Below, one piece after another: positions 12,059-62,022 of a stretch of DNA of 64,000 bases (position 1 is its first letter; each line of letters opens with the position of its first letter). The notes under the pieces are model-generated. The model was not told the DNA's origin, made no database searches, and worked only from the letters and a program-made list of their open reading frames with translations. This DNA is from Myxococcales bacterium. GTDB lineage: Bacteria > Desulfobacterota > Binatia > HRBIN30. The stretch spans positions 137,187 through 201,186 of the forward strand of contig JBBILD010000006.1 in NCBI GenBank assembly GCA_037445065.1. Reading direction: 5' to 3'. Made by a program: the position numbers and the translations under genes.

Positions 12059-12432
12059 GCCAACCCCTCCCTCCCATGGCCGAACGCGGGCCGGTCGTGC
12101 AGCGGCGCGGCCGGCCCGCTGTTTTCTAGCCCGAGGCGTTCCGGAGGGCAGGTTGGTGCTTGGCTACTCGAGCCCGTGGCTCGCAATGCATGGCTCGTAC
12201 GAAAGAAGGGCCACTCGAGTGCGCTGGCCCTTTGCGTCGCGCCCATGCCGGGCAGACCATCCAATGAGGCTGATGACTGTGGCTCGCCGTGGCGGGAGCG
12301 CGGGCGATCGGAGACGGGGCTACCACTGGACAACGAAGTGGCGCGGGAGAGCGAAAAAGCCGTTCGCATTCGCTTGCTGAGTACGCTAGGTTTCGGGCAC
12401 TTTTTCACTCTATACGAGGAGTTGGACTGGTT

Positions 12433-34471: not shown

Positions 34472-34480
34472 TTTCTTCAC

Positions 34481-42485: not shown

Positions 42486-43189
42486 GGGTAGGCCCTCGCC
42501 AAATCTTCCGCAGGGACGCCGAGCCAATACAAGCAGCGAAGCCGCCACATGAGAAGGATCGTTCTCCATACCCCGTACGTTTCCCACCGGCGCCCAGAAG
42601 TGGTTACGCGCGAGCCCACGCAAGCCGGGCGGCCGAGCTGCTTCAGCGCACGGGACAGCCAGATGTCTTCCATCAACGGTTGGTCGGGATAGCCCCCGAC
42701 TTTCCAGAAAACGTCGCGGCGGACGAAAATGGCTTGGTCTCCGGTGGCAATCCCACTGAGTCGGGAGCGCAGGTTCATCAGCGCGGCAATCACTGGGAAC
42801 CAGCGGCTTCGACCTTCGATGCGTACGTCGAAGCGGCCCCAAAGGACCTGGGGGCGGGAGAGTGCTCGAGCGATTTGGTAGCACGCGTCGGGAGGCAGCC
42901 GCGTATCCGCATGCAGAAAGACGAGTGCCTCGCCGGTAGCCACGCTCGCACCTGCGTTCATTTGCCTTGCTCTTCCCCGCGGGGCGCACAAGACCCGGAA
43001 ACCAAGGGCACGCGCAAAGGCGACCGATCCGTCTTGACTGCCGCCGTCTACAATCAGCACCTCGCACCCAGCCCGGCGCAGTGGCAGCAAGTGCTGCAAC
43101 AACGAGGGGAGCTGCGTCATTTCGTTGAGCATCGGAACGATGAGGGAGATTTTCATCGTCTGCTTGCTACAGAGTCGTTCAGACTCCAA
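42482..43189 (-). CDS. GT2-family TIGR04283-type rSAM-associated transferase 2
   Basis: MKISLIVPMLNE...EVLIVDGGSQDGS...RGRARQMNAGA...LVFLHADTRLP. Confidence 0.75.
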   Translation of the reverse strand: MESERLCSKQTMKISLIVPMLNEMTQLPSLLQHLLPLRRAGCEVLIVDGGSQDGSVAFARALGFRVLCAPRGRARQMNAGASVATGEALVFLHADTRLPPDACYQIARALSRPQVLWGRFDVRIEGRSRWFPVIAALMNLRSRLSGIATGDQAIFVRRDVFWKVGGYPDQPLMEDIWLSRALKQLGRPACVGSRVTTSGRRWETYGVWRTILLMWRLRCLYWLGVPAEDLARAYP

Positions 43190-44055
43190 TCGTAGTCTCC
43201 GAAGCGGATGGGGATGCGGCCAGCCCGCAACGCCGTTTCTCGTTCAGGGGACAGCTCGAGTTCGCGTGCGTAGAGTGCCAGAAACTCCGCGAGCGAAGTC
43301 GCACCGCGGAAGCCCTGCTCGAAGTCGCCGCGATACCAGTGGAAGATCGGAGACACTTCCAAGTACGTCCCCACCAGCCGATTCCGACCGCGATCTCCGA
43401 GAAATCGGCGCGCTTGATCCTCGAGCTGTGCATCGAGTTCACTTCCTGTGTACGCCTCGGGCCGCAATGCTGGACAGCCGACACTGGCGCAATTGAGGGC
43501 AAAGTGAACCCGTGGGTCTCGGTAGCGCCCTGAGCCGCGAATGAGTCCGTGTTCGATATCGTCCAGAGAGACCGTCTTGCTCAGCAAGCGAATGAACGGA
43601 CGCTTCCAAGGCGATTGGAAGAGGGACCCCAAGTCCTTGATGGACTTGAGCCCCGGGTATCGGCTCAAAACGAGTTGGATGGTGAAGGCATTGTAGGCGT
43701 TGATGAGGAACGCCAGTTGCTGGCTCGCGGGCCAGGTGTCAAAGGCGGCTTGTTGCACCGCCGATAGGTTGGCCAAATAGGCATCCAGCGCTGCTTGATT
43801 TCTCTTGAATCCCGCGTAGTCCACAGTACTCGCGTGCCCTTCGTACACCCAACGCACGTGTTGTTTGAGGAGCGTGTCCCAGGAGCTGTGGTCCGCGAAC
43901 GCGAAAACAGGCCAGGCCGGGAACAGTCCGAGCAAGAGGAAGGAAAAGCAGGCTAGGAGGTTCCGGTGGCAGGTCGCGCCGCGCTGGGGCGTGCTCGCGG
44001 AAGGCCGCGGAGACTCGGCCGCTCTCCCTTTTCCGGTGGCAAACAGGGCTGCCAT
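43153..44055 (-). CDS. DUF547 domain protein, secreted
   Basis: FLINAYNAFTIQLV....HFALNCASVGCPAL (DUF547). Signal peptide LLACFSFLLLGLFPAWPVFAFA. Start at M24 of the tracked ORF. Confidence 0.7.
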   Translation of the reverse strand: MAALFATGKGRAAESPRPSASTPQRGATCHRNLLACFSFLLLGLFPAWPVFAFADHSSWDTLLKQHVRWVYEGHASTVDYAGFKRNQAALDAYLANLSAVQQAAFDTWPASQQLAFLINAYNAFTIQLVLSRYPGLKSIKDLGSLFQSPWKRPFIRLLSKTVSLDDIEHGLIRGSGRYRDPRVHFALNCASVGCPALRPEAYTGSELDAQLEDQARRFLGDRGRNRLVGTYLEVSPIFHWYRGDFEQGFRGATSLAEFLALYARELELSPERETALRAGRIPIRFGDYDWSLNDSVASRR

Positions 44056-44066
44056 CGCTCTCTGGA

Positions 44067-45062
44067 CTAGGGCCATGACGGCCGAGCCTCCGCTCCTGCC
44101 GAGGTTTGCAGGGCGCCACCGCAACTACTGCCCTGGCCCGCAGTGCAGCCGTAGCAATGGTCGGCAACCCGAATCGGCGAACCGGCAGGATCCCACTCGA
44201 GCAAGTCGCGCAAGTGGGCGGGCCGCAGCTGGCGGTTGAGCGGCAAGCGAAGCTGCTGGTTGAAGTCGCAATCGTACAGGTAGCCCTGCCAGTCCACACT
44301 CACGAGGGAACGGCACATGACCTGGTCTGTGTTGCCCGCCCGGAAGTGCTCCTTGAGCAATCGCAGGTAGTTGTGAAACTCGCCGCGCGAAAGCAGCCAC
44401 GAGCCGAAACGCTGAATCGGCATGTTGGTTAGAACGAAGAGGTGGTGGAAAACGATGCCGAAGCGCTCGCGTAGCTCCTGCTTGTACGCCGCTTCGAGGG
44501 ACGTTTGGTTCGGCGGTAGGCTGGGGCCGAGCGGATTGTATACGAGATGAAGCCGCAGGGGGGAGTCCTCTTGGCCGTAGCCAAGGGCGTTCAGCTTCCG
44601 TAATGCCGCAATGCTCTTTTCGAAAACACCCTTGCCGCGCTGGCGATCTACGTTGTCGGCGGAGTAGCAGGGCAGAGATGCGACCACCTCCACTGAGTGG
44701 TCGCGCAGAAACTCAGCCAGGTCTTCCTCGCCTGGCTCGAACAGGACCGTAAGGTTGCAACGGTCGATGACGCGCACCCCGAGACCATGCGCGGCACGCA
44801 CAAGATCCCGGAACCCTGGATGCAATTCCGGAGCCCCGCCGGTAAGGTCGAGGGCGGAGATCCGCCGCGCTGCGAGCACTTTTGGGATCAGCGCCAAGAT
44901 GTCTGCTTGCATCATCTCTGTGCGGTACGGCCCGGCGTTGACATGGCAGTGCATGCACGATTGGTTGCAGCGGTAGCCCAGGTTCACCTGCAGCGTGTTT
45001 ACGGGCCCGCGCTTCAGTGCGGGGAAATCTGTGGGCTCGAGTAGTGGCAAAACGGTCTGCAT
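44067..45062 (-). CDS. arsS: arsenosugar-biosynthesis-type radical SAM protein with C-terminal Cys-rich domain (ArsS-like)
   Basis: CNQSCMHCHVNAG radical-SAM cluster. C-terminal ...ADHCYGCTAGQGSSCGG (Cys-rich selenodomain-type tail). Confidence 0.8.
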   Translation of the reverse strand: MQTVLPLLEPTDFPALKRGPVNTLQVNLGYRCNQSCMHCHVNAGPYRTEMMQADILALIPKVLAARRISALDLTGGAPELHPGFRDLVRAAHGLGVRVIDRCNLTVLFEPGEEDLAEFLRDHSVEVVASLPCYSADNVDRQRGKGVFEKSIAALRKLNALGYGQEDSPLRLHLVYNPLGPSLPPNQTSLEAAYKQELRERFGIVFHHLFVLTNMPIQRFGSWLLSRGEFHNYLRLLKEHFRAGNTDQVMCRSLVSVDWQGYLYDCDFNQQLRLPLNRQLRPAHLRDLLEWDPAGSPIRVADHCYGCTAGQGSSCGGALQTSAGAEARPSWP

Positions 45063-48323: not shown

Positions 48324-49682
48324 TCAGAGGACCAGTTTGTACGCGAGACCGAACGCGCCGCTCAGCGCAATAACTGGGATCACGCCGGCTTGCTGGCGAA
48401 AGAGCAAGTAGGTGGCGCCAAGGGCAATGCATGCTGAGGGCCAGTCGAAACGGCCGCTGAATCCATGTGGCCAAAGCACGTGGTAAGTCAGGAACAATGC
48501 CAAATACACGATCACCCCGGTTACCGCCGCAGTAACTGCCTGTAGCGGCGCCGTGAGCGTCAGATTGCCGCGCGTGGATTCGACCATAGGGCCACCCGCG
48601 AGAATGAACAGAAAAGAGGGCAGAAAGGTAAACCACGTGGCCACTAGGGCGGCGAGTGCCCCTCCTGCAAAGGTGTACTCCGGGCCGAGGAGTGCCTGCC
48701 GGTAGCCGGCTACGAAGGCGACGAAGGCCACCACCATGATCAGTGGACCTGGAGTCGTTTCGCCGAGCGCTAAGCCGTCAATCATCTCTCCAGGAGTAAG
48801 CCAGCCGTAATGGTTCACAGCGGCTTGGTACACATAGGGAAGCACCGCGTACGCGCCCCCGAAGGTGAGCAAGGCGACCTTGGTAAAGAACCAAGTCATC
48901 TGCGTGAACATGCCACGCCAGCCGTCCGTTGCGGCCAGCCACGCCATTGGCACCACCCAAAGCAACGCACCGGCCACCAGCACTCGGGCAAAGCTGCGCG
49001 CGCGAAAGCGGGTGTGTTCTGGTGGGGGCGTGTCCTCGTCGATCAGCGCGGGAGTAAATTGCGAGACGGCCCCATTTGTTTTTCCCAGCAATCGCTCAGG
49101 AGCCAAGCGCCAGGCCAAGTAGCCGACCACCGCCGCGCCGGTCAAAATCGCCGGGAACGGCACCTGGAGGGCGGAGATGGCCACGAAGGAGGCGGCCGAA
49201 ATTGCCCAAAGCAAATGGCTGCGAAGCGTACGCGTGCCAATGCGGTAAGCGGCGTGCGCGACGATCGCGGTGACCGCCGGTTTGAACCCGTAAAAGAGCC
49301 CGGCCACAGCGGGCTGGTTGCCGAACGCAACATAGAGCCACGCTAGTAGGGTCAGGAGGATCAGCGACGGCAGGACGAACAGGGCTCCAGCAGCAATTCC
49401 GCCCCACGTGCGATGCAGTAACCAGCCAATGTAGGTGGCAAGCTGCTGGGCTTCCGGCCCGGGAAGCAGCATGCAGTAGTTCAGAGCGTGCAGAAAGCGA
49501 GGTTCGCTGATCCAACGCCTCCGCTCGACGAGTTCGGCGTGCATGATCGCGATTTGGCCGGCTGGACCACCAAAGCTCACGAAACCAAGTTGGAGCCAGA
49601 ACCGAAGCGCCTCCCGAAAGCTCACAGTCGCTGGTCGCGAGGTTGGTCCCTGGGAAGGGGGTTCCGTCGTCTGCGCTGTCAC
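48324..49682 (-). CDS. chrA: chromate ion transporter (CHR family)
   Basis: Duplicated ChrA halves with FGGPAGQIAIMH and LLTFGGAYAVLPY motifs. Confidence 0.85.
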   Translation of the reverse strand: MTAQTTEPPSQGPTSRPATVSFREALRFWLQLGFVSFGGPAGQIAIMHAELVERRRWISEPRFLHALNYCMLLPGPEAQQLATYIGWLLHRTWGGIAAGALFVLPSLILLTLLAWLYVAFGNQPAVAGLFYGFKPAVTAIVAHAAYRIGTRTLRSHLLWAISAASFVAISALQVPFPAILTGAAVVGYLAWRLAPERLLGKTNGAVSQFTPALIDEDTPPPEHTRFRARSFARVLVAGALLWVVPMAWLAATDGWRGMFTQMTWFFTKVALLTFGGAYAVLPYVYQAAVNHYGWLTPGEMIDGLALGETTPGPLIMVVAFVAFVAGYRQALLGPEYTFAGGALAALVATWFTFLPSFLFILAGGPMVESTRGNLTLTAPLQAVTAAVTGVIVYLALFLTYHVLWPHGFSGRFDWPSACIALGATYLLFRQQAGVIPVIALSGAFGLAYKLVL

Positions 49683-51136
49683 ACTAGGGCCCTTGCTCGA
49701 GGATCACCGTAGCTGTGCGCGCAGGTGCTTCCACTGCAGACAGGAACCGTTCCTGTTCCGAGGCAATCTTCCATCGTCGCTTGCAACTCCTGGTGCATTG
49801 CAGGTGAGCTGGGTGCGTCAGTTGCTGCGAAGGGACTCGGGGCTTCTGTTGTGGCCCTGGACAGTCGCCGTGCGGGCCAGCCTCCGCTGCCAGAAACTCG
49901 CTGCGGCTCCTGAGGCCACGAGTAAGAGCGGCCTTTTCTCCTCCGTTAGCCTATGTCGAGGGAGCGGTTCCCTGTTTGCCGGACCTCGTGCACGTCTCCC
50001 GTCAGCGCCTGGATCGGATGCAAACAGCTCTGCTCGTCGGAAGAGAACGCCCCACCGGGGCACGCCGATCACGTTCTTGTTCGGACCGCTCCGGCGTGTA
50101 GGCCCTGTTCGAGGGCCTACGGGACTGGTGCGGGAGCCGGTAGAGCCTCCACGTCTCCCCGCTCTTGTGCTCCTCCCAGTTGCGAAGCTGCGGACATTGT
50201 GCTGCCGACTTGCTCGGCCACTCCTGCAAGTCTGGAAGCGCCTCTTGCCCAGCCCGTCTGTCGGCGAGCCAGAGCCGCCCGCTCACGTAGACAGCGTTCG
50301 TTTTGCGCGGCAGGTCGTCCACGGCTTTGCACAAACGAGTGCATGCTCCAACGCTGCCTGCGTGCCGCGGGCAGCACCTGAGAGGCAGTCGCGCCGAATT
50401 CGGGTGGCGGTCGCCCCTCCGCAGCTCTACCCCGCGAAGCTCCCGATCCTTGCGGCGCAACCACACAGCCTGCCAGCTTGGCTCGCAGTGGCGGCGCACC
50501 CACCTTCGCCGCGACTGGCGGTTCCGTCGGCACACGTGCAAGCAGAAGAGCTGCCCTTACAACAATTGGCAGCCCCGGTAATTCAACGGAATCCGAACAC
50601 CCACAGCACGGGGCCACGTGCCGCTGCTTGCACAGCGGGCGCGGGTACGAGATGCCATCCAGGTTGTGTAGGGGCGACCCTTGTGGTTACCGGAGGTGCC
50701 GTTGGCAGTGCTGTTCGAACGTGCCCGCGGCGTTTATGCGACCACGCGTTGCTGGCAGCATGGTGTCCCTTCGCCGCACTCCCCTGCCCCCCGAGGCATG
50801 CTGTCACCACTACCACCAACAACGCTGAAATCGTTGCGCATGGCTCCCCGGGATTGGACCGCAGCGCCTACCCAGGAGCGCTTTCGGCGTGAGCGGCCGA
50901 GCGCACTCCTGGCGAGTGGGCAATGAGCTGGCCGATCGCCGGCGTTTGGGGACGCCGCTGGTGCGAGCACTTCGGTGCGGCCCAGGCTCGACCTCCGCGG
51001 CTTTGGTTCCGAAACTTCGTTGCTTGAGTTGCGTGCTAAGGGGTGTAGCGTGCCGAGTCAGGCGAGGAGGGTTGCGCATGCACCCAGCCGCCGCACGGCA
51101 AAGGTGGCCTAGTAGTCGCGGGGGGCGTACTCGCGC

Positions 51137-53030
51137 ATGCGCGTGGTTCCTCGCGGTCGTGTTCTTTTGGGCGAGCCCGGAGGCTCCATGGCTTTGGCAC
51201 TCGCTGCCTGCCCGCTCGACTGCAATGAAGACGGGCTCGTATCGGAGAGCGGGTTAGCCCTTGGACTCGCCAACGTCTCTCCCCGAGCAGTGTTTGGCTG
51301 TCCCATCGCTGGCCCGCAGTCGACTCCAACGCCGACGGCGACTACGGCGTCGAGGACCTCATCCGCGGCGCCACGGCTCGCCGTCTGCAGTGCGAAGATG
51401 TGGCATCACCGGCAGGCTGGCGCGGTGCGGTCATTGACGCATTGCAGGGACTCTATCTCATCGGTGCCCAACTCCGCGCCAACCGCTGACCTCCACCGGG
51501 CACGTTGGCGTCCGACCCCTCATGGGCGTGGCTTGGGCCGGATTCTGCCACGCCGAGCCCACGCCTCAGTTCCGGTTCGTCACCACAACCTCCAATCTGC
51601 CCTGGATGCGGCCTGGCTGGCCACCGCCGAATTGTGCCTTCGACCCGCCGGCGGCGGCTTATCTCGCGGACGTGCCGCCCACCCCTACCCTCACGCGCAC
51701 GCCTACCAGCAGCACACCTACCCCGGGCACGCGCACCCCCACTTGGATTGCCACGCCCACTCGGACGGCCACGGCCACTCCCACCGGTCCCACGCCCATA
51801 CGTACACCGGTTCTCTTATGCGACACTGTGGATTGCCGCGGGATCGCTCCGGACTGCTGCCCGTGCCCTGGAGATTCCTGTCCCATTGCCGATTGGCAGG
51901 TGGAACCAATACCGCAAGTGCAAGGAGTATTTCTGCGCGCTCGATCCGTTGAGCCCGGCGTGCTTGGGCGAGTGTGGGACTTGTCCACCGAATGCTCCGT
52001 GTCTCGGCGCTCCAGCGACTGCTTGTGCGACAGCCACCTACACGCGTACGCCGGCGTGCAGCCCACGCGCACCGCCAGTCCCACTCGCACGCCCACCGGA
52101 CCGACCCGTACTCCCACCGCGGCGCCACCCCCGGCGCGCATCCCCGGACTCGCTGTGCCGATCCTCGACGTATCCGGGAGCAACGGCGAGCGTGTGACCG
52201 TCGAGGCGTACTTAGTGGGCAGCGGCGGCAAGGTTGGCGGTTTGGAATTCGACTTGCTGCTGCTGCAGGCGGCTGTAGCGCCAGTGGCTGTGTCGGAACA
52301 ATCGGCGGACAGCGTCCTGCAAGCAGCCTTTCTCTCCACCCACCGCTTGCCTCTAGTCGCGCCCCCGATCACCCGCTCGCTGGATTCGACCGGGTGCCGG
52401 TGCTGGTGGCGGACCGCAACGTGACCGACCGACTGCGCGACGAAACGCAGATGTTGAGCGACGGTGTGGTGGTGACCTGCACTCTGACCATCCTCACCAA
52501 CGCGCCTAGGGGCGGCCACCCGTTGCGCGTGGATCGGGCGCGAGCAGGCGATGAGCGCGGCACTTCCCTGTGGCCCTTCCGGGGCAGGCGACGCTGTGGG
52601 TGGGGGGCTGTTCGGGGAGCTGCTGCTCAAAGGAGGCGCCACCATGAGGCCGATGTTGTTCGGCACATACAGAACAACCGAACCCGCACCGCCTGCCTGG
52701 CTTGCAGCGCTGCTCGCGGCAGCCGTTGTTCAGGCTCGTGGGGCCTGGGGCCAGTTCGTACTCGAGGAAAGGTGGGACTTCCGGTACCCAGGCCCAGGCT
52801 ATGTCATCGAGCGCACGGCCTGGTATGCGGTCTACCCGGTCAAAACCAGAGATGCCATTGGTCCGCCTGGAGGCAGTGCGATGATTTCCGTTGCAGTGCG
52901 CCCGACATTGCGCTGTTGCGACTCAGAGCCGCAAGCGTTCTGGGAGGGGTGGTTTTCTCTCCGCTTCGCGGGTCTCGAGGGCTTGGGTTCCCCGTTGCAG
53001 CGCAGCTTTATCCGGCGCGGCCTGCGGTGA
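51137..53030 (+). pseudogene. multiply frameshifted locus encoding dockerin-like, PT-linker, Cys-rich and cohesin-like segments (scaffoldin-like remnant)
   Basis: Frame 2 reads CPLDCNEDGLVSESGLALGLANV (dockerin-like). Frame 0 reads PTPTLTRTPTSSTPTPGTRTPT... and later PTRTASPTRTPTGPTRTPT...VPILDVSGSNGERVTVEAYLVGSGGKVGGLEFDL (cohesin-like). Another frame reads CALDPLSPACLGECGTCPPNAPC. No single frame is open across the region. Confidence 0.3.
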
Positions 53031-53226
53031 GCCGTGCTGCCCGATTCTTTGCAAGTCGTCCCGGACCGAGGGTCTGGATGGCGTCTTCTCCCTCCCCGTT
53101 GGGGTGGGTTTCGGTTCATTCCGGCCAAGGTTCCGGATATCCAGGTCCGGGAATGGCTCAGGGGGCTGAGAGCCCCTGGTCGCCCTGAGTCAGCGCCATG
53201 CGAGAGGATCGTGGTTTGGTTTTACG

Positions 53227-53706
53227 TTGGGCTTCAACTGTTGCTTGAAGGCGAGTCGGGCCCATTCGCAACGGACCCGATTCCGATTCACGAGTGGCCC
53301 GAGGGGGCCCTCGGGCCTGCCGTTTTTCGCGCCTGAGGATTCGGCGGTGTGCTGTGGCTTCTTTGTGCCTGCTACTGCCCGCCCAGGGACGTACCCGGCA
53401 GAGTGCGCGGGCAACGAAGAAGGGATCCTGCTGCCGCCGGAGTGTGGCGGCTGCCAACGGGGCGCTTTGCACGTGGTGCCGTGCGTGGCCGACTGCAACC
53501 GCGACGGGCAGGTGACCGTGGAGGAACTGGTGCGCGCGGTGGGCGTGGTGGTGGGCAGGGAGCGTTACGAAGGCTGCGCTGCTGCCGATGGCAACGAAGA
53601 CGGGGCGGTCGCCTTGGATGAGGTGGTGCGTGGCGTGCGCAACGTGCTGACGAGCTGCCTGCAGACCTGGATGGAAGCGCACAACGCCCCTCTAGAGGTG
53701 CCGTGA
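53227..53706 (+). CDS. Cys-rich protein fragment with C-terminal dockerin-like double repeat
   Basis: CVADCNRDGQVTVEELVRAVGVVVG...ADGNEDGAVALDEVVRGVRNVL. No signal peptide at the tracked TTG start, so this may be the 3' part of the decayed upstream gene. Confidence 0.4.
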   Translation: MGFNCCLKASRAHSQRTRFRFTSGPRGPSGLPFFAPEDSAVCCGFFVPATARPGTYPAECAGNEEGILLPPECGGCQRGALHVVPCVADCNRDGQVTVEELVRAVGVVVGRERYEGCAAADGNEDGAVALDEVVRGVRNVLTSCLQTWMEAHNAPLEVP

Positions 53707-54182
53707 TGAGGTTCTCGGCTCGGCTCTCGAGCGTGCTGATCGCTGTCTTGCTTGCACCGCCCACGGTGCGGTTTGCCGCTGCCATTGACTCCACTGGGGT
53801 GCTCAAAGCGACCATTCATCCTGCGGCGGCTCGCGCCGGGGGTGAGGGCGACCTGCTGTTTTCGCTTGCCTCTCCCGACGAATCCTGGGAAGGCAAGCGG
53901 CTGCGGGGACTGCTGAACTGGCCTCGTGCTGGCGGCAGAGAGCCCAGCCACCCGTGGTGGTGGGTGCGCAAGGCAGAAAACGGCGTGCCCGACGGCGAGC
54001 CCTGGGACGCTGCTGCCTTTACCGAGTTCGAGGTTCGGTTCCACCCGCCAGGTTGTAGGGAGGGGGTGAATCGCTTCGCGATGACCTTGCGCGGCGAAGT
54101 GCACCGCGCGCCGGAACCTCCCATCGTGCGCTGCCGCATCGCGGTGGCGCCAACCCGTTCTCCAGGCGAGTACGTGCACTAA
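53703..54182 (+). CDS. small secreted protein, unknown function
   Basis: Signal peptide MMRFSARLSSVLIAVLLAPPTVRFAAA. Start overlaps the upstream stop. Trp-rich segment PSHPWWWVRKAENG. Confidence 0.45.
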   Translation: MMRFSARLSSVLIAVLLAPPTVRFAAAIDSTGVLKATIHPAAARAGGEGDLLFSLASPDESWEGKRLRGLLNWPRAGGREPSHPWWWVRKAENGVPDGEPWDAAAFTEFEVRFHPPGCREGVNRFAMTLRGEVHRAPEPPIVRCRIAVAPTRSPGEYVH

Positions 54183-54292
54183 ACGGGTTGCCCGTTCGGT
54201 GCTGCACTCTGCCGGGTGGGCTACCTCTGGCGCCAGTGGTTGGAGGAACCGTGCGTGCGGATCCCGGGGCGTTTCCCTCTGCGGGTGGAGCC

Positions 54293-54799
54293 ATGAAGCG
54301 CATGACCTGGCTAGCGCGCGCCAACCTATTGCGTGTGCTCCGCTTGTTCGCCGTCGTCTCCGCTACCACTGCTGTGCTCGCCTTCCTGGCCGCTGCCTTG
54401 CCTCCCCTCTCGGTTGCACTGCTGCCGACCTCGCTGGCCTTGCGCGGGAGCTTGGAGGAGGCCGTTGGCAACGAAGGGCAGACTGGGGCTCCGGACCGGC
54501 GGTTGCAGTGGAGCTTCGTTGGCCAGCGCCAAGGCCACGCGTTGCATGGTAAGTGGCTCATACTCGGCCATCCGAGTTGGAACAGTTTGGCAGTGGAAGC
54601 CGCCGTCCTTCCTGAGGTTGTCGAGGGCTTGCTCATGGGCGCGGGTGGCGAGGTGGTCGGGAAGTTGTCCGGCCGCTGGAGTACTTCGGGGGCAGAGGGC
54701 ACCTACGAGCTCTTGAGCGGCGAGGCGGGTAGCTGGAATTGGCCCTCGGCGGCGCCCGACACACCACCGACGGCCGAGAAAGAGCCCGCGCTGGCATGA
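54293..54799 (+). CDS. membrane-anchored/secreted hypothetical protein
   Basis: ATG 54293 preceded by GGGTGGAG. N-terminal hydrophobic anchor LLRVLRLFAVVSATTAVLAFLAAALPP. Confidence 0.4.
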   Translation: MKRMTWLARANLLRVLRLFAVVSATTAVLAFLAAALPPLSVALLPTSLALRGSLEEAVGNEGQTGAPDRRLQWSFVGQRQGHALHGKWLILGHPSWNSLAVEAAVLPEVVEGLLMGAGGEVVGKLSGRWSTSGAEGTYELLSGEAGSWNWPSAAPDTPPTAEKEPALA

Positions 54800-55016
54800 G
54801 CGAGCGGAAGTCGCTGGGCGAGGCCCTCGGTCCCGGAGTGCGCGCGGGGCACCACCCGTGCGACCCGAACCCAGCAGAGGGCGATTCGGGATGTGGCCTT
54901 ACCTAGGCGGAGTTCCGGCATATTACGCCGCCTGGGTCGCCGCGGCGGCGGCGTTCCTGGGGTGGGGCTACCGGGCTTAGCGGTGCAGCACCGCTCGGAG
55001 CCTGCCTCGCTTTTTA

Positions 55017-55730
55017 TTGCCGCTATCGCTGGTGTGCGCAGTGCTGCTCGGGACAAAGGCGGCTTACGGATTGGAGCGATCGCACGGGCTGAGCACCATG
55101 CCCTTTGCCGCACCTGAGTGGTGGTCCGGTTTTCGCCTGCCCGCCGGGAGTGTGCTCGCGCCCTGTTGCTTTTGTGTTGGGGCTCGCCTGGCGGCGCTTC
55201 CGTTCGGCACCGTTGCCGATGCGCTCTCGGTACCGGCATGGGCGAGCGTGGCACTGCTCCAAGTCGGCTGTTTGCTCAATGGCTGCTGCTTCGGGCGCTC
55301 GAGCTCTCTCCCGTGGGCGGTCTGCTTGTATGGGCACACACAACCTTTCTGCTGCACGCCAAACTGGGCTGGGTTGCCAGCAGCCAACCTTCTACTGCCC
55401 CAGCTCACCCGCTGCCCTTGTACTTTGCTGCGCTCGCCCGGCTCGCTGCGGTAACCTCTAGCTTCTAAAGGTCTCGGTGGGGCGGCCTGGTGCTCGGTTC
55501 CTGACCGCGCTGTGCGTGTACGGTTCGGGTGCCGCGTTTCTGGAGCCGTTGCGCCCGCTCTGGTTGTGGCCGAACCTCGTTTTCTGCACTGTCCTGAGTG
55601 TGGCCAGTGCCGCTGCGCTCGTGAACTTGCACGGCGAAGATCGCGCCGCCCGGCGTGCTCGACCAGTGGCTCCGCTGTCCAGCGGGAGGGGCCACGATTC
55701 GAAGAGAACCGCACCCACGCCCGGGTAGGC
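55017..55730 (+). pseudogene. prolipoprotein diacylglyceryl transferase (Lgt)-like gene fragments across three frames
   Basis: Frame 0 reads LQVGCLLNGCCFGRSSSLPWAVCLYG (compare Lgt GRLGNFINGELWGR...PWA). Frame 2 reads AHPLPLYFAAL (compare HPSQLYE). Frame 1 reads RPGARFLTALCVYGSGAAFLEPLRP (compare YGAFRIIVEFFRQP). Confidence 0.35.
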
Positions 55731-56500
55731 TCGAAGCTTGCCAGTTCGAGGCGCGACGCTGGGCTCTCGTCGCGGCTCAAGGCGGAGCAGGCGATCAGGG
55801 GTGTGTGATGACCGGACCACTGCGACTAGTCGCTTACGTGTAAGTCGTGCCGCGCGTGCGTGCGCTAGCGGGTGCACGGCGAAGGTTTCGGAAGACCACC
55901 GGCTGGGCGAAGAAAACCCCCGTTGCGGGTGTTCATGGAGAGCGGTAACGGCGACCCTCGCGCTCCGCTCGCTTGACTCCGTCCTCACTGTGCCTCTGCG
56001 GTCCACGCCTCCAGGACCTGTGATGTGCCGCCCTCACAAGCGCGCAGGAAATTGTCGTGGGAAGGCAACGAAGTCCTATCAAACGACCGAAATCTTGCCG
56101 CGCTTCCTTTGCGCTTTCTGCCCCTCTTGGCGGCCTTCCCCTCGCTCCTGGACTACCTACCAGCCCTGGATCCTTGTCGGCGGAAGGTTTCCCACACTGC
56201 GCCTCCGGTCGAGGGCCGAACTCGGCCGCAGAAACTGCCCTCGATCGGGCTCATGCGAGAGGGCCGCGAGCAAGGCCGGGTGCGAGGAACGAGCCATTTG
56301 CTCTGCACCCCCCGTCCGCCACCAGATCGCCTCTGGCCCGCTCATCTTGGGGATCGTTCTCCCGACCTTTCCGCACAACAAAGGGAAAAGACTGGCGTGC
56401 AACCCCGCGAGTCGCTTCCGCGTGCGGTTTATGTAACAAGGACTTCGCGCGTGCGACCAAGCGGGCATGACTAACGGAGCGGGTCGCGCTGGGAAGAACG

Positions 56501-57391
56501 ATGCAAGGAAACACTGAGGGAAACGGGGGCGTCGCCCGCCAGCGTTCTGCGGGCCTCGCCGGGTTTGCGCGCGGGTTGCGGTGGCTGTGCTGGCTGGTGA
56601 TTGCAGGCTGTGCGGTAGCGCTCGCTCGTTTGCTTCCGGTGAGCGCGTGGCTTCAGCAAATCACGGTCGTTGCGGAAGGCGCAGGCCCTTGGGGCCTGGT
56701 GATCTTCGGTCTTGCATATGTTGTGGCGGCATTGCTGTTCGTGCCGGGGGCAGCGATCACGATCGCTGCCGGAGCCGTCTTCGGGCTTGGGCTCGGCATC
56801 GTGGTGGTCTCGTTCGCTTCGACTGCCGCCGCCGCACTCGCGTTCGCCATCGCTCGCTATGCGGCGCGCGGCGCCGTGACGGAGTGGGCGAAAAGATACC
56901 CGTGGTTCGTTGCCCTCGATCAGGCGCTCGAGCGTGGCGGATGGCGGATCGTGGCTTTGCTGCGGCTGTCACCTGTTGTGCCTTTCAACGTGCTCAATTA
57001 CTTGCTCGGCCTAACCGCGGTCCGTTTTGGGCCGTACGTGCTGGCGAGTTGGATTTTCATGCTTCCCGGCACGGTGCTGTACGTGGGAGCGGGTTACGCG
57101 AGCCGGCTAGGACTGGAAGCAGCGGCAGGCCAGGAGGCGGCGCTTTCTCTCGGCCGTTGGCTGCTGCTCGTAGTGGGCCTCGCCGCCACGCTTTTTGTGA
57201 CCGTGTACGCAGGCCGGCTGGCCCGCCAGGCGATGGCGGAGCAGGTGCAAAGTCTTGCCAGCCCAAAGCCGCAGCAGCCAGCAACAAGGACGGGAGCCAG
57301 TTCTACGGGCCTGCTCGTGCTTGCTTCGCTGGCCGTGTTGATGGTCGCGGTGACGTCGTTCGCCTATTTGCACGCGGGTGGGGCCCACTGA
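56501..57391 (+). CDS. TVP38/TMEM64 (DedA superfamily) membrane protein
   Basis: LRLSPVVPFNVLNYLLGLT signature of DedA/SNARE-associated proteins, with multiple TM helices. Confidence 0.85.
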   Translation: MQGNTEGNGGVARQRSAGLAGFARGLRWLCWLVIAGCAVALARLLPVSAWLQQITVVAEGAGPWGLVIFGLAYVVAALLFVPGAAITIAAGAVFGLGLGIVVVSFASTAAAALAFAIARYAARGAVTEWAKRYPWFVALDQALERGGWRIVALLRLSPVVPFNVLNYLLGLTAVRFGPYVLASWIFMLPGTVLYVGAGYASRLGLEAAAGQEAALSLGRWLLLVVGLAATLFVTVYAGRLARQAMAEQVQSLASPKPQQPATRTGASSTGLLVLASLAVLMVAVTSFAYLHAGGAH

Positions 57392-57443
57392 GCCCGCGCT
57401 CCGCTTCCAACGTGGAAAGACCTACGCATCGCGAGGAGGAACG

Positions 57444-59012
57444 ATGAGTGCACACCGTCTAGCTGTGACCCCATGGGAAACACCTGCGGAAAGCTGGCAG
57501 AAGATGCTCGTGCCGGACTCCGAACACAATCGGGAGTTGGCGCGGCAAGTGCGTCCGCCGAACTGGGTGCCACCGGTTCCAGCTCGCCGTTACAACTTGG
57601 TGGTGATCGGCGGAGGTACGGCGGGGCTGGTGACGGCCGTGGGCGCCTCGTCCTTGGGCGCGCGAGTGGCGCTGGTGGAGCAGGGGCTGCTCGGCGGCGA
57701 CTGCCTCAACGTCGGATGCGTACCCTCCAAGGCAGTTCTGCACGCTGCCCGCGTGGCCGCCGAGGTGCGGCGGGCAAGCTGGCTGCGTGTGGCGGGCGGT
57801 GGCGCGGTGGAAAGTGACTTTGCGCGCGTCATGGAACGCATGCGCGCCATTCGCGCCGAATTGGCGAGGAACGACTCAGCTCAGCGGCTGGCAGACCTGG
57901 GTGTAGACGTGTTTTTCGAGCAGGCGCGCTTTACGGGACCGGACACGGTGCAGGCTGGAAACCAGGAGCTGCGCTTTGCGCGTGCCGTGATTGCTACAGG
58001 CGCGCGTGCGGCAGTCCCGCCCATCTCTGGTTTGGACTCGGTGCCATACTGGACCAATGAGTCGGTCTTCTCGATGACCGAACTTCCACGGCGCTTGGTG
58101 GTGCTCGGTGCCGGACCGATCGGGTGCGAGCTAGGGCAAGCGTTTGCTCGTTTCGGCTCCCGCGTGACGTTGGTGGACATGGCGCCTCGAATCTTGCCAA
58201 GGGACGATGCGGAAGCTGCCGCGGTCGTGACCGAGTCCTTGCTCCGCGACGGCGTCGAAATCATGTCCGAGGCTAAGGTCGAACGAGTGGAGCGTACGCG
58301 CGGCGGTGAGATCTCCGTACAGGTGCGCTCTGCCCGGGGGGCAGCCGCGCTCGCGGCCGACGGTCTCTTGGTCGCTGTCGGCCGTGCGCCGAACATCGAG
58401 GCGTTGGATCTCGAAGCGGCGGGGGTGCGATACGATGCCAGGCAAGGGGTTCAGGTTGACGACTTCCTGCGCTCGAGTAACCCTCGCATTTACGCGGCAG
58501 GCGACGTTTGCTCCGCGTTTCGCTTTACTCACGCTGCGGATGCGATGGCGCGCATTGTGATTCAGAATGCGCTCTTTTTCGGGCGCGCGCGGGTGAGTCA
58601 GCTCGTGATCCCATGGTGTACCTACACCGACCCTGAGCTGGCGCAGGTAGGTTGGAGCGAGGAAGAAGCGCGCCGCCGAGGAGCGGATCCGCACGTCGTC
58701 CGAGTGGACTTTGCTGAGGTCGATCGCGCTGTCGTAGATGGGCGCGCGCAAGGCTTTGTGAAAGTTGTTGCTCATCGGCGCTCGGGGAAGGTGCTGGGGG
58801 CAACGATTGTGGGGCCGGCTGCCGGGGAATTGGCAGCCCACCTTGCCACTGCAGTGCAACATGGTGTGCGCCTTTCCAGCTTCGCCCGCACAGTGTTTCC
58901 GTATCCAACGCTTTCGCTTGCCATCAAGCGCGCGGCGGACCAATGGAACCGCACGCGCCTGACACCGCGCGTGCAATGGTTGTTTTCCAAGTTCCTTGCG
59001 TGGCGCCGCTGA
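57444..59012 (+). CDS. class I pyridine nucleotide-disulfide oxidoreductase (dihydrolipoamide dehydrogenase / mercuric reductase-like)
   Basis: LVVIGGGTAGL, redox-active GGDCLNVGCVPSK, a second Rossmann fold LVVLGAGPIGCE, and a dimerisation domain. GAGGAGG RBS before ATG 57444. Confidence 0.85.
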   Translation: MSAHRLAVTPWETPAESWQKMLVPDSEHNRELARQVRPPNWVPPVPARRYNLVVIGGGTAGLVTAVGASSLGARVALVEQGLLGGDCLNVGCVPSKAVLHAARVAAEVRRASWLRVAGGGAVESDFARVMERMRAIRAELARNDSAQRLADLGVDVFFEQARFTGPDTVQAGNQELRFARAVIATGARAAVPPISGLDSVPYWTNESVFSMTELPRRLVVLGAGPIGCELGQAFARFGSRVTLVDMAPRILPRDDAEAAAVVTESLLRDGVEIMSEAKVERVERTRGGEISVQVRSARGAAALAADGLLVAVGRAPNIEALDLEAAGVRYDARQGVQVDDFLRSSNPRIYAAGDVCSAFRFTHAADAMARIVIQNALFFGRARVSQLVIPWCTYTDPELAQVGWSEEEARRRGADPHVVRVDFAEVDRAVVDGRAQGFVKVVAHRRSGKVLGATIVGPAAGELAAHLATAVQHGVRLSSFARTVFPYPTLSLAIKRAADQWNRTRLTPRVQWLFSKFLAWRR

Positions 59013-59047
59013 GGAACGCTCGGCGGGTAGTCCGCCGAGCGCAAAGC

Positions 59048-60241
59048 TCAGGGGGGATCGCTAGCCACAGATACGCTAGCGCCGGGGTCGCGCAGTACGC
59101 AGCGCGTGCGCTGGTAAATGGTCGGCACGCACTCATTGCAATGAGTGCATAAAGAGGCGTGTTCGGGGTCTTGCTGCCACACCCGTACAAGCTCGGGTTC
59201 GCGCAGCAAGGCACGGCCGATTTGCACGAAATCGAATCCTTCCGAGAGGGCCATACGCACGGTCTGCAAGGAGGTCACGCCGCCCAAGAGAATCAGCGGT
59301 AGGCGCAGTGCGGCGCGGAACTGCCGCGCCTGAGCGAGGAAAAAAGCCTCTTCGAACGGGTAGCTCCGGAACAAGCGCCGCATGAGGAGCTTGGCGGGCA
59401 AGCGCAACCAGCGCGGAAAGCGCGTGCTCATGGAATCGATTGGCGCGTCTCCCCGGAACAGGAACATGGGGTTGGCGAAGGAAGAGCCACCCGTGAGCGT
59501 AATTGCATCCACGGTGCCATCTGCTTCGAGCATACGGGCGAACTCGAGGCTCTCCTCCACTTGCAGGCCATCGGGCAATCCGTCGCTCATATTGAGTTTC
59601 GCGGTGACCGCCATACGAACCCCCGCAGCCTGCCGCACCGCTTCGAGCACCCGCCTGGGAAAGCGCGCCCGGTTGGCCAGGGAGCCTCCCCATTCGTCGG
59701 CTCGCTGATTGAGGCGCGGGGAAAGAAACGCGCACAGCAGGTAGTCGTGGCCCAGGTGGACCTCGATGGCGTCGAAGCCGCTCTCGCGCAGGAGGCGCGC
59801 GCCGCGGGCGAACTCCTGCTCGATGCGCTGCAGGTCGCGCTCGCTCGCCGCGCGCGTCCAGCGCATACGCGAGGCACTGAACACACGCGAAGGAGCAAGC
59901 GTGCCGAGGGGTCCTGAATGGCCGATTTGCGCGGCTACCTTCGCTCCGCATGCGTGAACAGCCTCGGCCAACCGAGCCAAGCCTCTTCCGACGCCGGGCA
60001 AGTCCAACTGCACCTGCCTACCGTCGATGCTTCCTTCGCGGCTCACGGCACAGTAAGCCACTGTGGTCATTCCCACCCCGCCTCGCGCAAAGCGGCAGTG
60101 GAATTCGACGAGGTCGCTGCTCACCTCGCCCCGGGGGGCGCGACCCTCGAAGGTAGCCGCTTTGATGATCCGATTGGGCAGTTCAACTGGTCCCAGTCTT
60201 GCCGGTGCAAACGGATCGGGTCCCGGGTCCTGTACCGCCAT
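59048..60241 (-). CDS. NADH:flavin oxidoreductase, Old Yellow Enzyme family
   Basis: TIM-barrel OYE motifs HLGHDYLLCAFLSPRLNQRADEWGGSLANRARF. GGAGGA RBS before the second ATG, at 60241. Confidence 0.85.
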   Translation of the reverse strand: MAVQDPGPDPFAPARLGPVELPNRIIKAATFEGRAPRGEVSSDLVEFHCRFARGGVGMTTVAYCAVSREGSIDGRQVQLDLPGVGRGLARLAEAVHACGAKVAAQIGHSGPLGTLAPSRVFSASRMRWTRAASERDLQRIEQEFARGARLLRESGFDAIEVHLGHDYLLCAFLSPRLNQRADEWGGSLANRARFPRRVLEAVRQAAGVRMAVTAKLNMSDGLPDGLQVEESLEFARMLEADGTVDAITLTGGSSFANPMFLFRGDAPIDSMSTRFPRWLRLPAKLLMRRLFRSYPFEEAFFLAQARQFRAALRLPLILLGGVTSLQTVRMALSEGFDFVQIGRALLREPELVRVWQQDPEHASLCTHCNECVPTIYQRTRCVLRDPGASVSVASDPP

Positions 60242-60519
60242 GGCCTTTTCCTCCACCAGTACACGCCTCTATGTCTTACGCCGCGCTGAGGAAGCAAGGG
60301 ACGCAGGTCAGGAACCGGATCCTGGGTGTGCCCGACCAACCGCGTGTTTGTGTTTCAAGATTTGGGAACGCAGTTCGCAAGTGGCCGCCTTTATGATCTC
60401 TTTGCCCGGAGAACTGGCGTGCGGGCACGCGGATGCGTAGAACAGGCGCCTTGTACAGGCAAAACATGGAGCGGGATCGTTCGTGCGAGCGGGGCGACAG
60501 GTGGTTCGACCTTCGTGCG

Positions 60520-62022
60520 ATGAGAGTATGGACCACAGCGCTGGCAGTGCTGGCCTCTCTGGGGCGGGCACAGGCCGAGGGGACCCACTTTCAGTTCGCG
60601 CAAGTTGCCGAGCGCGCGCAGCAACTAGCGAAGGGCGCGTATCAGGCACCTGAGCGCATTCCTGACTGGCTCACTCGTATTTCGTATGATCAATGGCGGG
60701 ACATTCGTTTCCGGCCCGAGCGGGCACTGTGGCGGGATGGCCGTACCCCCTTCCAAGTGCAGTTCTTCCATCCGGGTTATTATTACGAGCGGACGGTCGC
60801 CATACGGATCGTGGATGAGGCGGGTGTCCACCCTGTGGCCTTTTCTCCTAGCGATTTCGATTACGGGAAGAACGACTTTGCGAGCCGCGTGCCCCACAAT
60901 CTGGGTTTTGCTGGCTTTCGGCTGCACGCGCCGATCAACCGTCCCGATTATTTCGACGAGGTCATCGTCTTTCTCGGGGCCAGCTACTTTCGCGCTGTGG
61001 GGCGGGGGCAAGTGTTCGGGTTGTCTGCGCGTGGTCTAGCCATCGACACCGGGTTGCCGAGCGGCGAAGAATTCCCGTATTTCCGCGAGTTTTGGATCGT
61101 CAAGCCGCCGCCTTGGGCAACCGCAGTGACAGTATACGCGCTGCTCGACAGCCCGAGTGTGGCCGGGGCGTACCGTTTCGAGATCTACCCAGGCGAAACA
61201 ACGCGGGTAGAGGTGACAAGCCGGCTGTTTTTCCGGCGCGAAGTGCAGCAACTCGGTGTTGCGCCGCTCACGAGCATGTTTTTCCATGGCGAATACAGCC
61301 CGCGGGCCGTCGAGGACTACCGGCCCGAGGTCCACGATTCGGATGGACTCCTGCTCCATTTCCGCGGCGGGGAGTTTCTCTGGCGTCCCCTTTCCAACCC
61401 TCGTACTTTGCAGATAAGTAACTTTCGTATGCAGTCGCCCCGCGGGTTTGGCCTGCTTCAGCGGGATCGGGACTTCGATCACTACCAGGACTTGGAAACG
61501 AGGCGCGAGCTGCGTCCGAGCGTGTGGGTGGAGCCTCTTGATGATTGGGGAGCCGGCAGAGTGCTACTGGTCGAGATCCCGACCAAATCTGACACCAATG
61601 ACAACATCGTTGCTTTTTGGGTGCCAGAGCCGCGACCCAAGGTCGAACTCCCGTTTGAAGCGCGCTACCGCTTGCACTGGTTTTCCGAGTATCCAGGCTT
61701 GTCCCCCGGCGGGCGGGTGGTGGCGACCCGGCGTGACCGTGGCAATCGCGAAAACGTGGTCCGTTACGTTGTCGACTTCGCTGGGGGCGGCTTGGAGGCA
61801 ATCCCTGCCGACACGGTTGTCCACGGCGCTGTCACCATTGCAAGCGGCGAAGACGCTGCTGAGTTGCTCGATCAGCAAGTGGTGAAAAACCCGGTGACGG
61901 AGCATTGGAGACTGGTGTTCCAAGTGCGGCCCAAACGCAGCGAGCCGGTTGAGCTGCGCGCGTACCTGATGCTGGGCGATCGGGTACTCACCGAAACCTG
62001 GTCAGCCGTCCTGGTGCCATGA
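60520..62022 (+). CDS. opgG: periplasmic glucan biosynthesis protein
   Basis: MdoG family: FFHPGYYYERTVAI...YFDEVIVFLGASYFRAVG. Signal peptide starts at ATG 60520. Confidence 0.85.
   Translation: MRVWTTALAVLASLGRAQAEGTHFQFAQVAERAQQLAKGAYQAPERIPDWLTRISYDQWRDIRFRPERALWRDGRTPFQVQFFHPGYYYERTVAIRIVDEAGVHPVAFSPSDFDYGKNDFASRVPHNLGFAGFRLHAPINRPDYFDEVIVFLGASYFRAVGRGQVFGLSARGLAIDTGLPSGEEFPYFREFWIVKPPPWATAVTVYALLDSPSVAGAYRFEIYPGETTRVEVTSRLFFRREVQQLGVAPLTSMFFHGEYSPRAVEDYRPEVHDSDGLLLHFRGGEFLWRPLSNPRTLQISNFRMQSPRGFGLLQRDRDFDHYQDLETRRELRPSVWVEPLDDWGAGRVLLVEIPTKSDTNDNIVAFWVPEPRPKVELPFEARYRLHWFSEYPGLSPGGRVVATRRDRGNRENVVRYVVDFAGGGLEAIPADTVVHGAVTIASGEDAAELLDQQVVKNPVTEHWRLVFQVRPKRSEPVELRAYLMLGDRVLTETWSAVLVP

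Follow-up and report, generated by a model that had tools for sequence, protein, structure and literature searches.

The window, a stretch of 64,000 nucleotides, carries at 51078-52647 of its forward strand what is very probably a non-functional relic (a pseudogene) of a secreted multidomain protein with lysyl-oxidase, cohesin and dockerin-like parts, as judged from its sequence. Alignment to intact homologues (P0004, 750 aa; P0015; P0007) placed the relic between an ATG at 51078 and a TGA at 52645-52647, and seven frame changes (51187, ~51263, ~51557, ~51900, ~52063, ~52351 and ~52578) were needed to read through it, which is an unusually dense damage for 1.57 kb. In addition, the relic contains a premature in-frame TGA at 51487-51489 and has lost ~283 residues, i.e. 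the entire lysyl-oxidase catalytic domain of its relatives (frameshift-aware alignment to P0004). The original prediction had described a gene with at least four frame changes at 51137-53030; the relic itself and its damage in several frames were borne out, but the number of lesions was underestimated and the limits differ, with 52644-53030 forming a separate ORF. We compared the locus with a sister genome (L002, a contig from SRR11582145), which is collinear with the window at 94.6% identity. The parts of the relic are as follows, with the frame given as the codon start modulo 3:

51078..51186, + strand: start and signal-peptide-like N-terminus MHPAAARQRW...AWFLAVVFFWASPEAP, frame 0 mod 3; GAGGAGG precedes the ATG at 51078
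51187, + strand: frameshift 1, 1-nt deletion (CCC to CC), window lineage only
51188..51262, + strand: first Ca-loop of the dockerin-like EF-hand pair, CPLDCNEDGLVS, frame 2 mod 3
51263..51264, + strand: frameshift 2, approximate position, common to the window and L002
51265..51556, + strand: second Ca-loop AVDSNADGDYGVEDLIRG and the next ~70 residues, frame 1 mod 3, containing the TGA at 51487-51489
51557..51560, + strand: frameshift 3, 1-nt deletion (CCCC to CCC) at 51560, window-specific
51558..51899, + strand: conserved PGWPPPNCAFDPPAAAYLADVPPTP motif, 46-residue PT linker and first half of the Cys-rich block, CDTVDCRGIAPDCCPCPGDSC, frame 0 mod 3
51900..51906, + strand: frameshift 4, complex replacement with a net gain of 1 nt relative to L002, window-specific; the L002 ORF P0005 reads through
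51901..52062, + strand: second half of the Cys-rich block, CKEYFCALDPLSPACLGECGTCPPNAPC, frame 1 mod 3
52063..52065, + strand: frameshift 5, 1-nt deletion (AA to A) at 52065, window-specific
52065..52350, + strand: second PT linker and N-terminal half of the cohesin, LAVPILDVSGSNGERVTVEAYLVGSGGKVGGLEFDLLL..., frame 0 mod 3
52351..52354, + strand: frameshift 6, 1-nt deletion (CTCAG to CTAG), window-specific
52352..52577, + strand: middle of the cohesin, DHPLAGFDRVPVLVADRNVTDRL...VVVTCTLTILTNAPRGGHPLRVDRARAGDERGTSL, frame 2 mod 3
52578, + strand: frameshift 7, 1-nt deletion (TTGCC to TTCC)
52579..52647, + strand: last cohesin strand and conserved C-terminus, PGQATLWVGGCSGSCC, frame 1 mod 3

Three-frame translation confirmed the predicted arrangement of PT linkers, Cys-rich block, dockerin-like repeat and cohesin-like continuation in three different frames. 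The PT linkers (51675-51815 and 52065-52130) have codon starts at 0 mod 3, the Cys-rich continuation NQYRKCKEYFCALDPLSPACLGECGTCPPNAPC (51901-52062) lies in frame 1 mod 3, and frame 2 mod 3 holds the first dockerin-like loop together with FDRVPVLVADRNVTDRL...VTCTLTILTN. A plot of GC by codon position was too noisy for frame placement at the 63-66% GC of this DNA. At its N-terminus, the frame that begins at 51078 continues directly into MALAVVACPLDCNEDG in L002, the window being one C short at 51187, and frameshift 2 is common to both genomes because 51188-51559 contains no indel between them. At its 3' end, the relic runs seven codons beyond the stop of the homologues (SKEAPP after CC).

In an exhaustive HMMER scan, the repaired C-terminal piece matched P0002 (E 6e-43, 57% identity, residues 3-162) and P0004 (E 4e-34), both matches spanning the two internal frameshift sites. 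Because the repaired piece matches intact proteins across both of these sites, the frame switching in the relic is not due to chance. Frameshift-aware alignment to P0004 gave 84/162 identities (52%) in the N-terminal part and 154/280 (55%) in the C-terminal part, and tblastn against the homologues matched segments in alternating frames. The relic is thus clearly homologous to intact coding genes: the indels could be placed by alignment, as had been proposed, and the repaired translation does have a protein family. This family is small: databases of billions of proteins yielded five members. When the repaired cohesin piece was the query of a word-indexed protein search, only the window's own fragment was returned, and Pfam gave just a spurious LysR match (0.029) on the repaired pieces.

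All five intact or near-intact homologues that we aligned (P0002, P0004, P0007, P0015 and P0016) combine a single cohesin with a lysyl-oxidase-like domain. Three of them (P0002, P0004 and P0007) match PF01186 at 30-38 bits, above the Pfam cutoff of 20.4 bits, and the alignments of P0015 and P0016 extend over this domain as well. The intact relatives share the order signal peptide, dockerin-like EF-hand pair, spacer, lysyl-oxidase-like copper amine-oxidase domain, Cys-rich block, PT linker and cohesin, the latter ending in GGCSGSCC. The motifs His-x-His-x-His, K-x-SFC and GW.D.Y were invariant in alignment A1 (H333/H335/H337, K371 and Y409 of P0004), and by analogy with the animal lysyl oxidases these residues would be the copper ligands (His) and the Lys and Tyr that form the LTQ cofactor. 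The intact relatives therefore resemble prokaryotic lysyl oxidase homologues in their domain match and motifs, and they differ from them in the added dockerin-like pair, Cys-rich block, PT linkers and cohesin. An architecture of lysyl oxidase, cohesin and dockerin-like module was not noted in a survey of prokaryotic lysyl oxidases (PMC4448552). When GTDB genomes were scanned with the family alignment, only distant relatives of the lysyl-oxidase domain were found (29-39% identity, in Myxococcales, Kofleriaceae and Gammaproteobacteria MAGs), and scans of JGI metagenomes with protein patterns and with a degenerate CK[DE]YFC..LDP DNA pattern gave no matches.

The C-terminal module has a cohesin fold by profile and model, so that the term cohesin-like in the original prediction was right at the level of the fold. 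The family profile matched solved cohesins (5n5p, 9e-9; 6kg8, 3.7e-8 over its full length), and a profile restricted to the close family still matched 5n5p (0.0049). The C-terminal domain of P0004 was modelled by AlphaFold with a pLDDT of 88.5; this beta-sandwich is that of the intact protein and not of the broken window copy. All 50 matches listed by Foldseek against the PDB were cohesins (TM 0.6-0.75), among them the non-cellulosomal Archaeoglobus cohesin 2xdh. The family shares 10-19% sequence identity with solved cohesins. Pfam Cohesin (PF00963) was matched neither by the repaired window piece (E<=1) nor by P0002, P0004 or P0007 (E<=0.1), and was matched only by P0012, P0013 and P0011, which are more distantly related.

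In contrast, the proposal that the locus encoded a scaffoldin-like, cohesin-bearing anchor was not upheld. Like cellulosomal scaffoldins, the relic family has PT-rich linkers, a cohesin and a dockerin-like module on one polypeptide. Unlike them, the intact proteins have one cohesin, no detected carbohydrate-binding module and a catalytic domain. Because a single cohesin is fused to an enzyme domain, the intact protein is not a scaffoldin, and we rejected assignment to the cellulosomal scaffoldins. Within the window, we saw no second cohesin-like region, no cohesin paralogue elsewhere and no cellulosome-type genes.

The N-terminal module is a predicted dockerin-like EF-hand pair. It consists of two tandem 12-residue Asp/Asn-rich loops (DCNxDGxV..E and DxNxDGxxxxEDL), each followed by a helix, a motif pattern that may correspond to the loop-helix repeats of type I dockerins; conserved Cys residues flank the module. 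Its profile scored best with classical EF-hand proteins (3akb, 1e-6), compared to one solved dockerin (5lxv_B, E 0.009), and Pfam Dockerin_1 (PF00404) was matched neither by the window pieces nor by P0004 and P0007. The predicted dockerin-like character therefore holds as a tandem pair of EF-hand-type loops, but does not extend to a Pfam Dockerin_1 match.

Downstream of the relic, the window contains further genes and remnants:

52644..53030, + strand: separate 128-aa ORF with a Shine-Dalgarno sequence (AAAGGAGG) and a signal-peptide-like start, without a Pfam match
53347..53667, + strand: C-terminal remainder of the cluster's second gene, with a Cys-rich stretch and a dockerin-like EF-hand pair that looks intact, VPCVADCNRDGQVTVEEL...AADGNEDGAVALDEV
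54188..54799, + strand: homologue of the cluster's conserved 173-aa protein, readable in one frame in the window (37% identity, no frameshift)
54891..55674, + strand: pseudogene of an Lgt (prolipoprotein diacylglyceryl transferase) paralogue, interrupted by an in-frame stop near 54978 and by two frameshifts, at ~55342 and ~55461

These correspond to a conserved cluster, in which the gene of the relic comes first: LOX-cohesin protein, dockerin-bearing 320-aa protein, 173-aa protein and Lgt paralogue. At the two comparator loci with enough flanking sequence (L004 and L005), the LOX-cohesin gene adjoins the gene of its dockerin-bearing partner and a gene for a small membrane protein, and the cluster lies downstream of a Cus/Czc-type RND efflux pump; in L004 a dedicated Lgt paralogue follows. 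No remnants of the RND pump were found at 49500-56600 of the window. In L005, the gene is split into two ORFs, and the LOX-cohesin family may thus be decay-prone or poorly assembled elsewhere. In the window, only the C-terminal part of the dockerin-bearing gene survives (tblastn E 1e-19 against the L004 320-aa protein, with weak EF-hand Pfam matches), and it carries a 1-nt indel at 53463 relative to L002. The ORF at 52644-53030 may be an N-terminal remnant of the same gene, to which its similarity is weak (tblastn E 0.009 against the L004 protein; a permissive frameshift-aware score of 78 compared to shuffles of up to 74). The homologue of the 173-aa protein differs from L002 by indels of 5 nt and 11 nt at 54409 and 54482, and the Lgt-paralogue pseudogene is 44% identical to the L004 PF01790 protein.

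The lysyl-oxidase domain (PF01186) was absent from the window copy by Pfam, tblastn and frameshift-aware alignment, and no counterpart of P0004 residues ~184-466 was found in the window; the 46-residue PT linker sits in its place. The five homologues and the conserved gene order suggest that the domain was deleted from the window gene. Alternatively, the ancestor could have been a paralogue that never had the domain and consisted of the dockerin-like module, linkers, Cys-rich block and cohesin, resembling an adaptor scaffoldin. Frame 0 mod 3 is unbroken across the junction, so an in-frame protein without the domain was once possible, and the domain is missing from both decayed copies (window and L002). 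However, five of five aligned homologues have the domain, the motif PPPN.AFDPP.A that lies directly upstream of it is retained in the window copy, and the downstream order (dockerin-bearing gene, 173-aa gene, Lgt paralogue) is that of the LOX-containing L004 and L005 loci, which favours orthology. We thus consider such an ancestor improbable. No intact orthologue in the same chromosomal position (chrA to the VTT-domain gene) was found, including in the GTDB genome scan, and there were no repeats or mobile-element ends of note flanking the decayed stretch.

The original prediction had left two alternatives, an old pseudogene or local assembly indel errors. Several lesions are indeed 1-nt differences in short runs (CC/CCC at 51187, CCC/CCCC at 51560 and A/AA at 52065), as would be expected if sequencing or assembly had introduced indels into an otherwise intact gene. 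However, these runs are merely 2-4 nt long, and CTCAG to CTAG, TTGCC to TTCC and the complex block at 51873-51906 are non-homopolymeric; moreover, the catalytic domain is wholly missing and a premature TGA is present. A Logan contig (SRR11582170), from another assembly though perhaps from the same reads, was 100% identical to the window over 20,465 bp with zero gaps. Approximately 35 kb of neighbouring genes were free of frame problems, with full-length Pfam matches (e.g. MdoG 1-475/478 and MFS_2 2-427/427), and no indels relative to L002 were present at 56000-62500 or 41500-45000. In addition, L002, which comes from a separate sample, holds an independently damaged copy: the pseudogene is present there too and lacks the same domain, with frameshifts that are in part different. 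Its ORF P0005 runs uninterrupted across the window frameshifts at 51900, 52063 and 52351 and it lacks the premature TGA, while it has private lesions of its own (11 nt deleted at 51606, and a frameshift that corresponds to position 52406 of the window). The lesions appear biological on this evidence, assembly indel errors being effectively excluded, and an artefact in an intact gene is highly unlikely. The old-pseudogene alternative was supported, also by the even distribution of substitutions over codon positions.

Indels between the window and L002 were concentrated at the decayed cluster: 33 of 43 lay within 49683-56500 (binomial p 3e-9), and 23 of these 33 were not multiples of three. In the relic there were 15 indels in 1.57 kb, nine of them not multiples of three. 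Mismatches in the relic were uniform over the codon positions (42/37/39; 8.5%; p 0.85), compared to 106/76/282 (3.7%) in the flanking genes (contingency p 3e-7), indicating that the relic has evolved without purifying selection. This pattern also speaks against a functional gene decoded by programmed ribosomal frameshifting or other recoding. Recognisable protein sequence does resume in another frame past each break, and nothing more favours recoding. Seven shifts in both directions plus stop readthrough would be needed within 1.5 kb, and the shift sites are not conserved, since three of them are read through in the 94.6%-identical L002, which is shifted at other positions instead. We give this reading next to no credence, and programmed frameshifting was rejected for its non-conserved sites.

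The relic is an ordinary pseudogene in a cluster that is decaying as a whole, with no new mechanism. It resembles other bacterial pseudogenes in its frameshifts, stop, large internal deletion, unbiased substitutions, lineage-specific lesions and decaying cluster neighbours; nothing essential differs, apart from the dense damage and the rarity of the parent family. Its decay was stepwise. Loss of the lysyl-oxidase domain (with the PT-rich linker bridging the gap) and the frameshift between the two Ca-loops would have come first; both states are common to the sister genome and so seem to predate the split of the lineages. After the split, each lineage gained small indels of its own and substitutions at a neutral rate, as comparison of the two copies shows, with five 1-nt-class frameshifts and the TGA stop arising in the window lineage. 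As at least three of the four cluster genes are damaged in this lineage, the whole system has probably ceased to be under selection. The locus would yield no functional product.

For annotation, 51078-52647 and 54891-55674 are best treated as pseudogenes, the ORF fragments within them (271, 300 and 404 aa, among others) not being genes, and the frame changes in the relic can be trusted as biological. The relic documents how an uncharacterised extracellular system was lost, and it pointed to a rare family of LOX-cohesin-dockerin-like proteins. We tentatively propose, as a possibility that we hold the less likely case, that the intact relatives and their L004/L005 neighbours form an undescribed non-cellulosomal cohesin-dockerin system with a secreted copper-dependent LOX-like enzyme that bears a dockerin-like module as well as a cohesin; the loss of this system would be recorded in the window by decay of the whole operon. 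If so, the system might come together at the cell surface, where it could cross-link proteins, and its decay in the window perhaps passed through an 'adaptor' intermediate without the lysyl-oxidase domain. Finally, two genomes ~5% apart that both contain this dead cluster, with some lesions in common and others private to each, make a small, clean case for the neutral rates of indels and substitutions in this uncultured lineage.

Three-frame translation of 51078-52647 gave recognisable protein pieces spread over all three forward frames, which bears out the multi-frame reading of the original prediction.

Pieces of the pseudogene at 51078-52647, in order (frame n, codon starts at coordinate n mod 3)
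From ATG 51078, +, frame 0: signal-peptide-like start
+, frame 2: first Asp/Asn-rich loop, CPLDCNEDGLVS
+, frame 1: second loop, AVDSNADGDYGVEDLIRG, ending at TGA 51487-51489
+, frame 0: PPPNCAFDPP, then PT linker, then CDTVDCRGIAPDCCPCPGDSC
+, frame 1: CKEYFCALDPLSPACLGECGTCPPNAPC
+, frame 0: second PT linker, then VPILDVSGSNGERVTVEAYLVGSGGKVGGLEFDL
+, frame 2: FDRVPVLVADRNVTDRL...VVVTCTLTILTNAPRGGHPLRVDRARAGDERGTSL
+, frame 1: PGQATLWVGGCSGSCC

We aligned this region with P0004, a 750-aa homologue, using a custom-written frameshift-aware protein-to-DNA alignment. The identities were 84/162 in the N-terminal part and 154/280 in the C-terminal part. At least four frame changes had been predicted; the alignment gave six (at ~51263, ~51557, ~51900, ~52063, ~52351 and ~52578) in addition to the TGA, and a seventh came from comparison with the sister-genome contig L002 (SRR11582145), where an extra C at 51187 joins the signal peptide to the first loop. 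The real start is ATG 51078, with GAGGAGG just upstream. Residues ~184-466 of P0004 have no counterpart in the window, and a 46-residue PT-rich linker occupies their place.

Were the frame changes errors of the assembly, as the original prediction had allowed, or the marks of an old pseudogene? The window comes from a 228.5-kb NCBI contig, and the Logan assembly of SRR11582170 was 100% identical to 41960-62424, without gaps. L002 is collinear with 41390-62562 (94.6% identity). Comparison of the two gave 43 indels, and 33 of them lie within 49683-56500, a region making up 32% of the alignment (binomial p 3e-9); in 23 of these 33 the length is not a multiple of three. No indels relative to L002 were found in 56000-62500 or 41500-45000. 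The L002 copy of the gene shares the absence of the domain and the N-terminal frame change with the window, and it is damaged differently elsewhere: its 382-aa ORF (P0005) is uninterrupted at the window breaks 51900, 52063 and 52351, the TGA is absent, and it carries private lesions (11 nt lost at window 51606, +1 nt at 52406). The indels occur in runs of only 2-4 nt or in no run at all. Mismatches between the window and L002 are spread evenly over codon positions in the pseudogene (42/37/39), whereas in eleven flanking genes they number 106/76/282 (contingency p 3e-7); the overall divergence is 8.5% and 3.7%, respectively, the former being similar to that at third codon positions of the neighbouring genes (282/4146 = 6.8%). 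All the evidence at hand (assemblies, L002 comparison and codon positions) thus indicates that the lesions are biological, and the reading of 51078-52647 as an ordinary, old pseudogene is well supported, at the expense of assembly errors. Programmed frameshifting was ruled out because the shift sites are not conserved.

The window has a G+C content of 63%, and most of it is covered by long ORFs that match Pfam families along their whole length (MdoG 1-475/478, MFS_2 2-427/427, TPP enzymes, MMPL). It also carries a tmRNA gene (34125-34473, +; Rfam 165.8 bits; tag peptide ADEPLALAA). The broken stretch is bounded by the chromate-transporter gene chrA (48324-49682, minus) and a VTT-domain gene (56501-57391), and no Pfam-family ORFs were found between them. 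A stop-free frame of 449 codons at 49543-50892 (+; 66% G+C) is Arg/Pro/Ala-rich and not protein-like. Its database matches were only itself and one 92%-identical fragment, single-nucleotide indels at 49979, 50778 and 50792 disrupt it in L002, and it is probably not a gene. In the window chrA looks intact; the truncated 207-aa call of the sister copy (L002 6929-7552) coincides with a 2-bp difference at window 49003, so that in the L002 lineage the decay reaches into chrA.

Pfam assigned no family to the repaired pieces, and a word-indexed search returned only the window's own fragment. The 162 residues of the repaired C-terminal piece served as query for an exhaustive HMMER scan, in which intact proteins aligned across both internal frameshift sites: P0002 (E 6e-43, 57% identity, residues 3-162), P0004 (E 4e-34) and P0007 (788 aa, E 4e-13). 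Conversely, tblastn of intact homologues against the window gave successive segments in alternating frames. These three proteins exceed the gathering score of Pfam Lysyl_oxidase (LOX, PF01186), and the match is exactly the part absent from the window copy. H-x-H-x-H, K-x-SFC and GW.D.Y are invariant in the family alignment (A1); by analogy with animal LOX, they would supply the copper ligands and the Lys/Tyr pair from which the LTQ cofactor forms. The parent family is very small (P0004, P0015, P0016, P0007 and P0002). It is a rare and mildly novel combination of lysyl oxidase, cohesin and dockerin-like pair, set in a conserved cluster; a survey of prokaryotic LOX reported mostly LOX-only architectures (PMC4448552).

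The C-terminal domain of this family is a predicted cohesin, on the basis of profile matches to solved cohesins and of AlphaFold/Foldseek. When three more distant relatives were added to the family, the profile matched 5n5p at 9e-9 and 6kg8, over its full length, at 3.7e-8; the close-family-only profile matched 5n5p at 0.0049. The AlphaFold model of the P0004 domain had a pLDDT of 88.5, and only cohesins were among the 50 Foldseek matches listed. The name scaffoldin was partly right, but the intact protein has a single cohesin and carries a catalytic domain, and is therefore not a scaffoldin. The N-terminal module consists of two EF-hand-type loops, and its profile preferred classical EF-hand proteins (1e-6), with one solved dockerin at 0.009 and no match to Pfam Dockerin_1; dockerin-like is thus apt as a description, but membership is not demonstrated. 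The same pair is carried by a BNR/Ycf48-like beta-propeller protein (20585-22666, +) and a 240-aa protein (5043-5765, -), so the module is used on several secreted proteins of the organism. No intact cohesin gene was found within the window.

How might the gene have decayed? The two shared lesions (domain loss and N-terminal frameshift) would be older than the split of the window and L002 lineages. The reading frame is unbroken where the domain is missing, and in alignment A1 the intact proteins have PT-rich sequence at both edges of this domain, which makes recombination or slippage between linker-coding repeats a plausible cause of the domain loss; a LOX-less dockerin-cohesin protein may then have existed for a time. 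After the split, each lineage gathered private small indels and substitutions, at about the pace of third codon positions in nearby genes.

We read the cluster order from two loci, L004 and L005, whose intact or near-intact members have enough flanking sequence. Both have a Cus/Czc-type RND pump, the LOX-cohesin gene, a 320-aa protein ending in a dockerin-like pair, and then a 173-aa protein; a paralogue of Lgt (prolipoprotein diacylglyceryl transferase) comes next in L004, and the L005 contig ends at that point. The RND efflux genes (OEP, CusB/CzcB-like, ACR_tran) lie directly upstream of the family members (L004 43-4362, L005 3099-8696), and such a pump is suggestive of a fit with a copper-dependent enzyme. 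In L005, an unrelated metagenome contig, the LOX-cohesin gene (9205-11587) consists of two overlapping ORFs of 271 and 528 aa that lie in different frames, and the next gene (11601-12684) is broken into 245 + 90 aa, reflecting either family decay there too or errors in that assembly. No remnant of the pump was detectable in the window, which retains the order of the other genes.

Features downstream of the pseudogene
52644-53030, +: separate ORF, 128 aa, with a good Shine-Dalgarno and a signal-peptide-like start
53227-53706, + (core 53347-53667): end of the second gene, Cys-rich with an intact-looking dockerin-like EF-hand pair, E 1e-19
54188-54799, +: homologue of the 173-aa protein, single frame, 37% identity, intact-looking
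54891-55674, +: Lgt (PF01790) paralogue pseudogene, 44% identity to the L004 protein

The ORF 53227-53706 matches the C-terminal part of the L004 320-aa protein, about half its length, and a 1-nt indel at 53463 separates it from the L002 version. In the 173-aa homologue, indels of 5 nt (54409) and 11 nt (54482) relative to L002 alter the frame between them. The Lgt pseudogene is interrupted by an in-frame stop near 54978 and changes frame at ~55342 and ~55461; five further 1-nt indels distinguish the L002 copy. The L002 copies of these genes carry different damage, and the LOX-cohesin pseudogene therefore belongs to a cluster that is breaking down as a whole.

The ORF 52644-53030 had been counted as part of the predicted gene (51137-53030). 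It has no Pfam family, and its similarity to the N-terminal part of the L004 320-aa protein, encoded by the second gene of the cluster, was weak (E 0.009) and not above shuffled controls. Its start codon overlaps the terminal TGA of the pseudogene.
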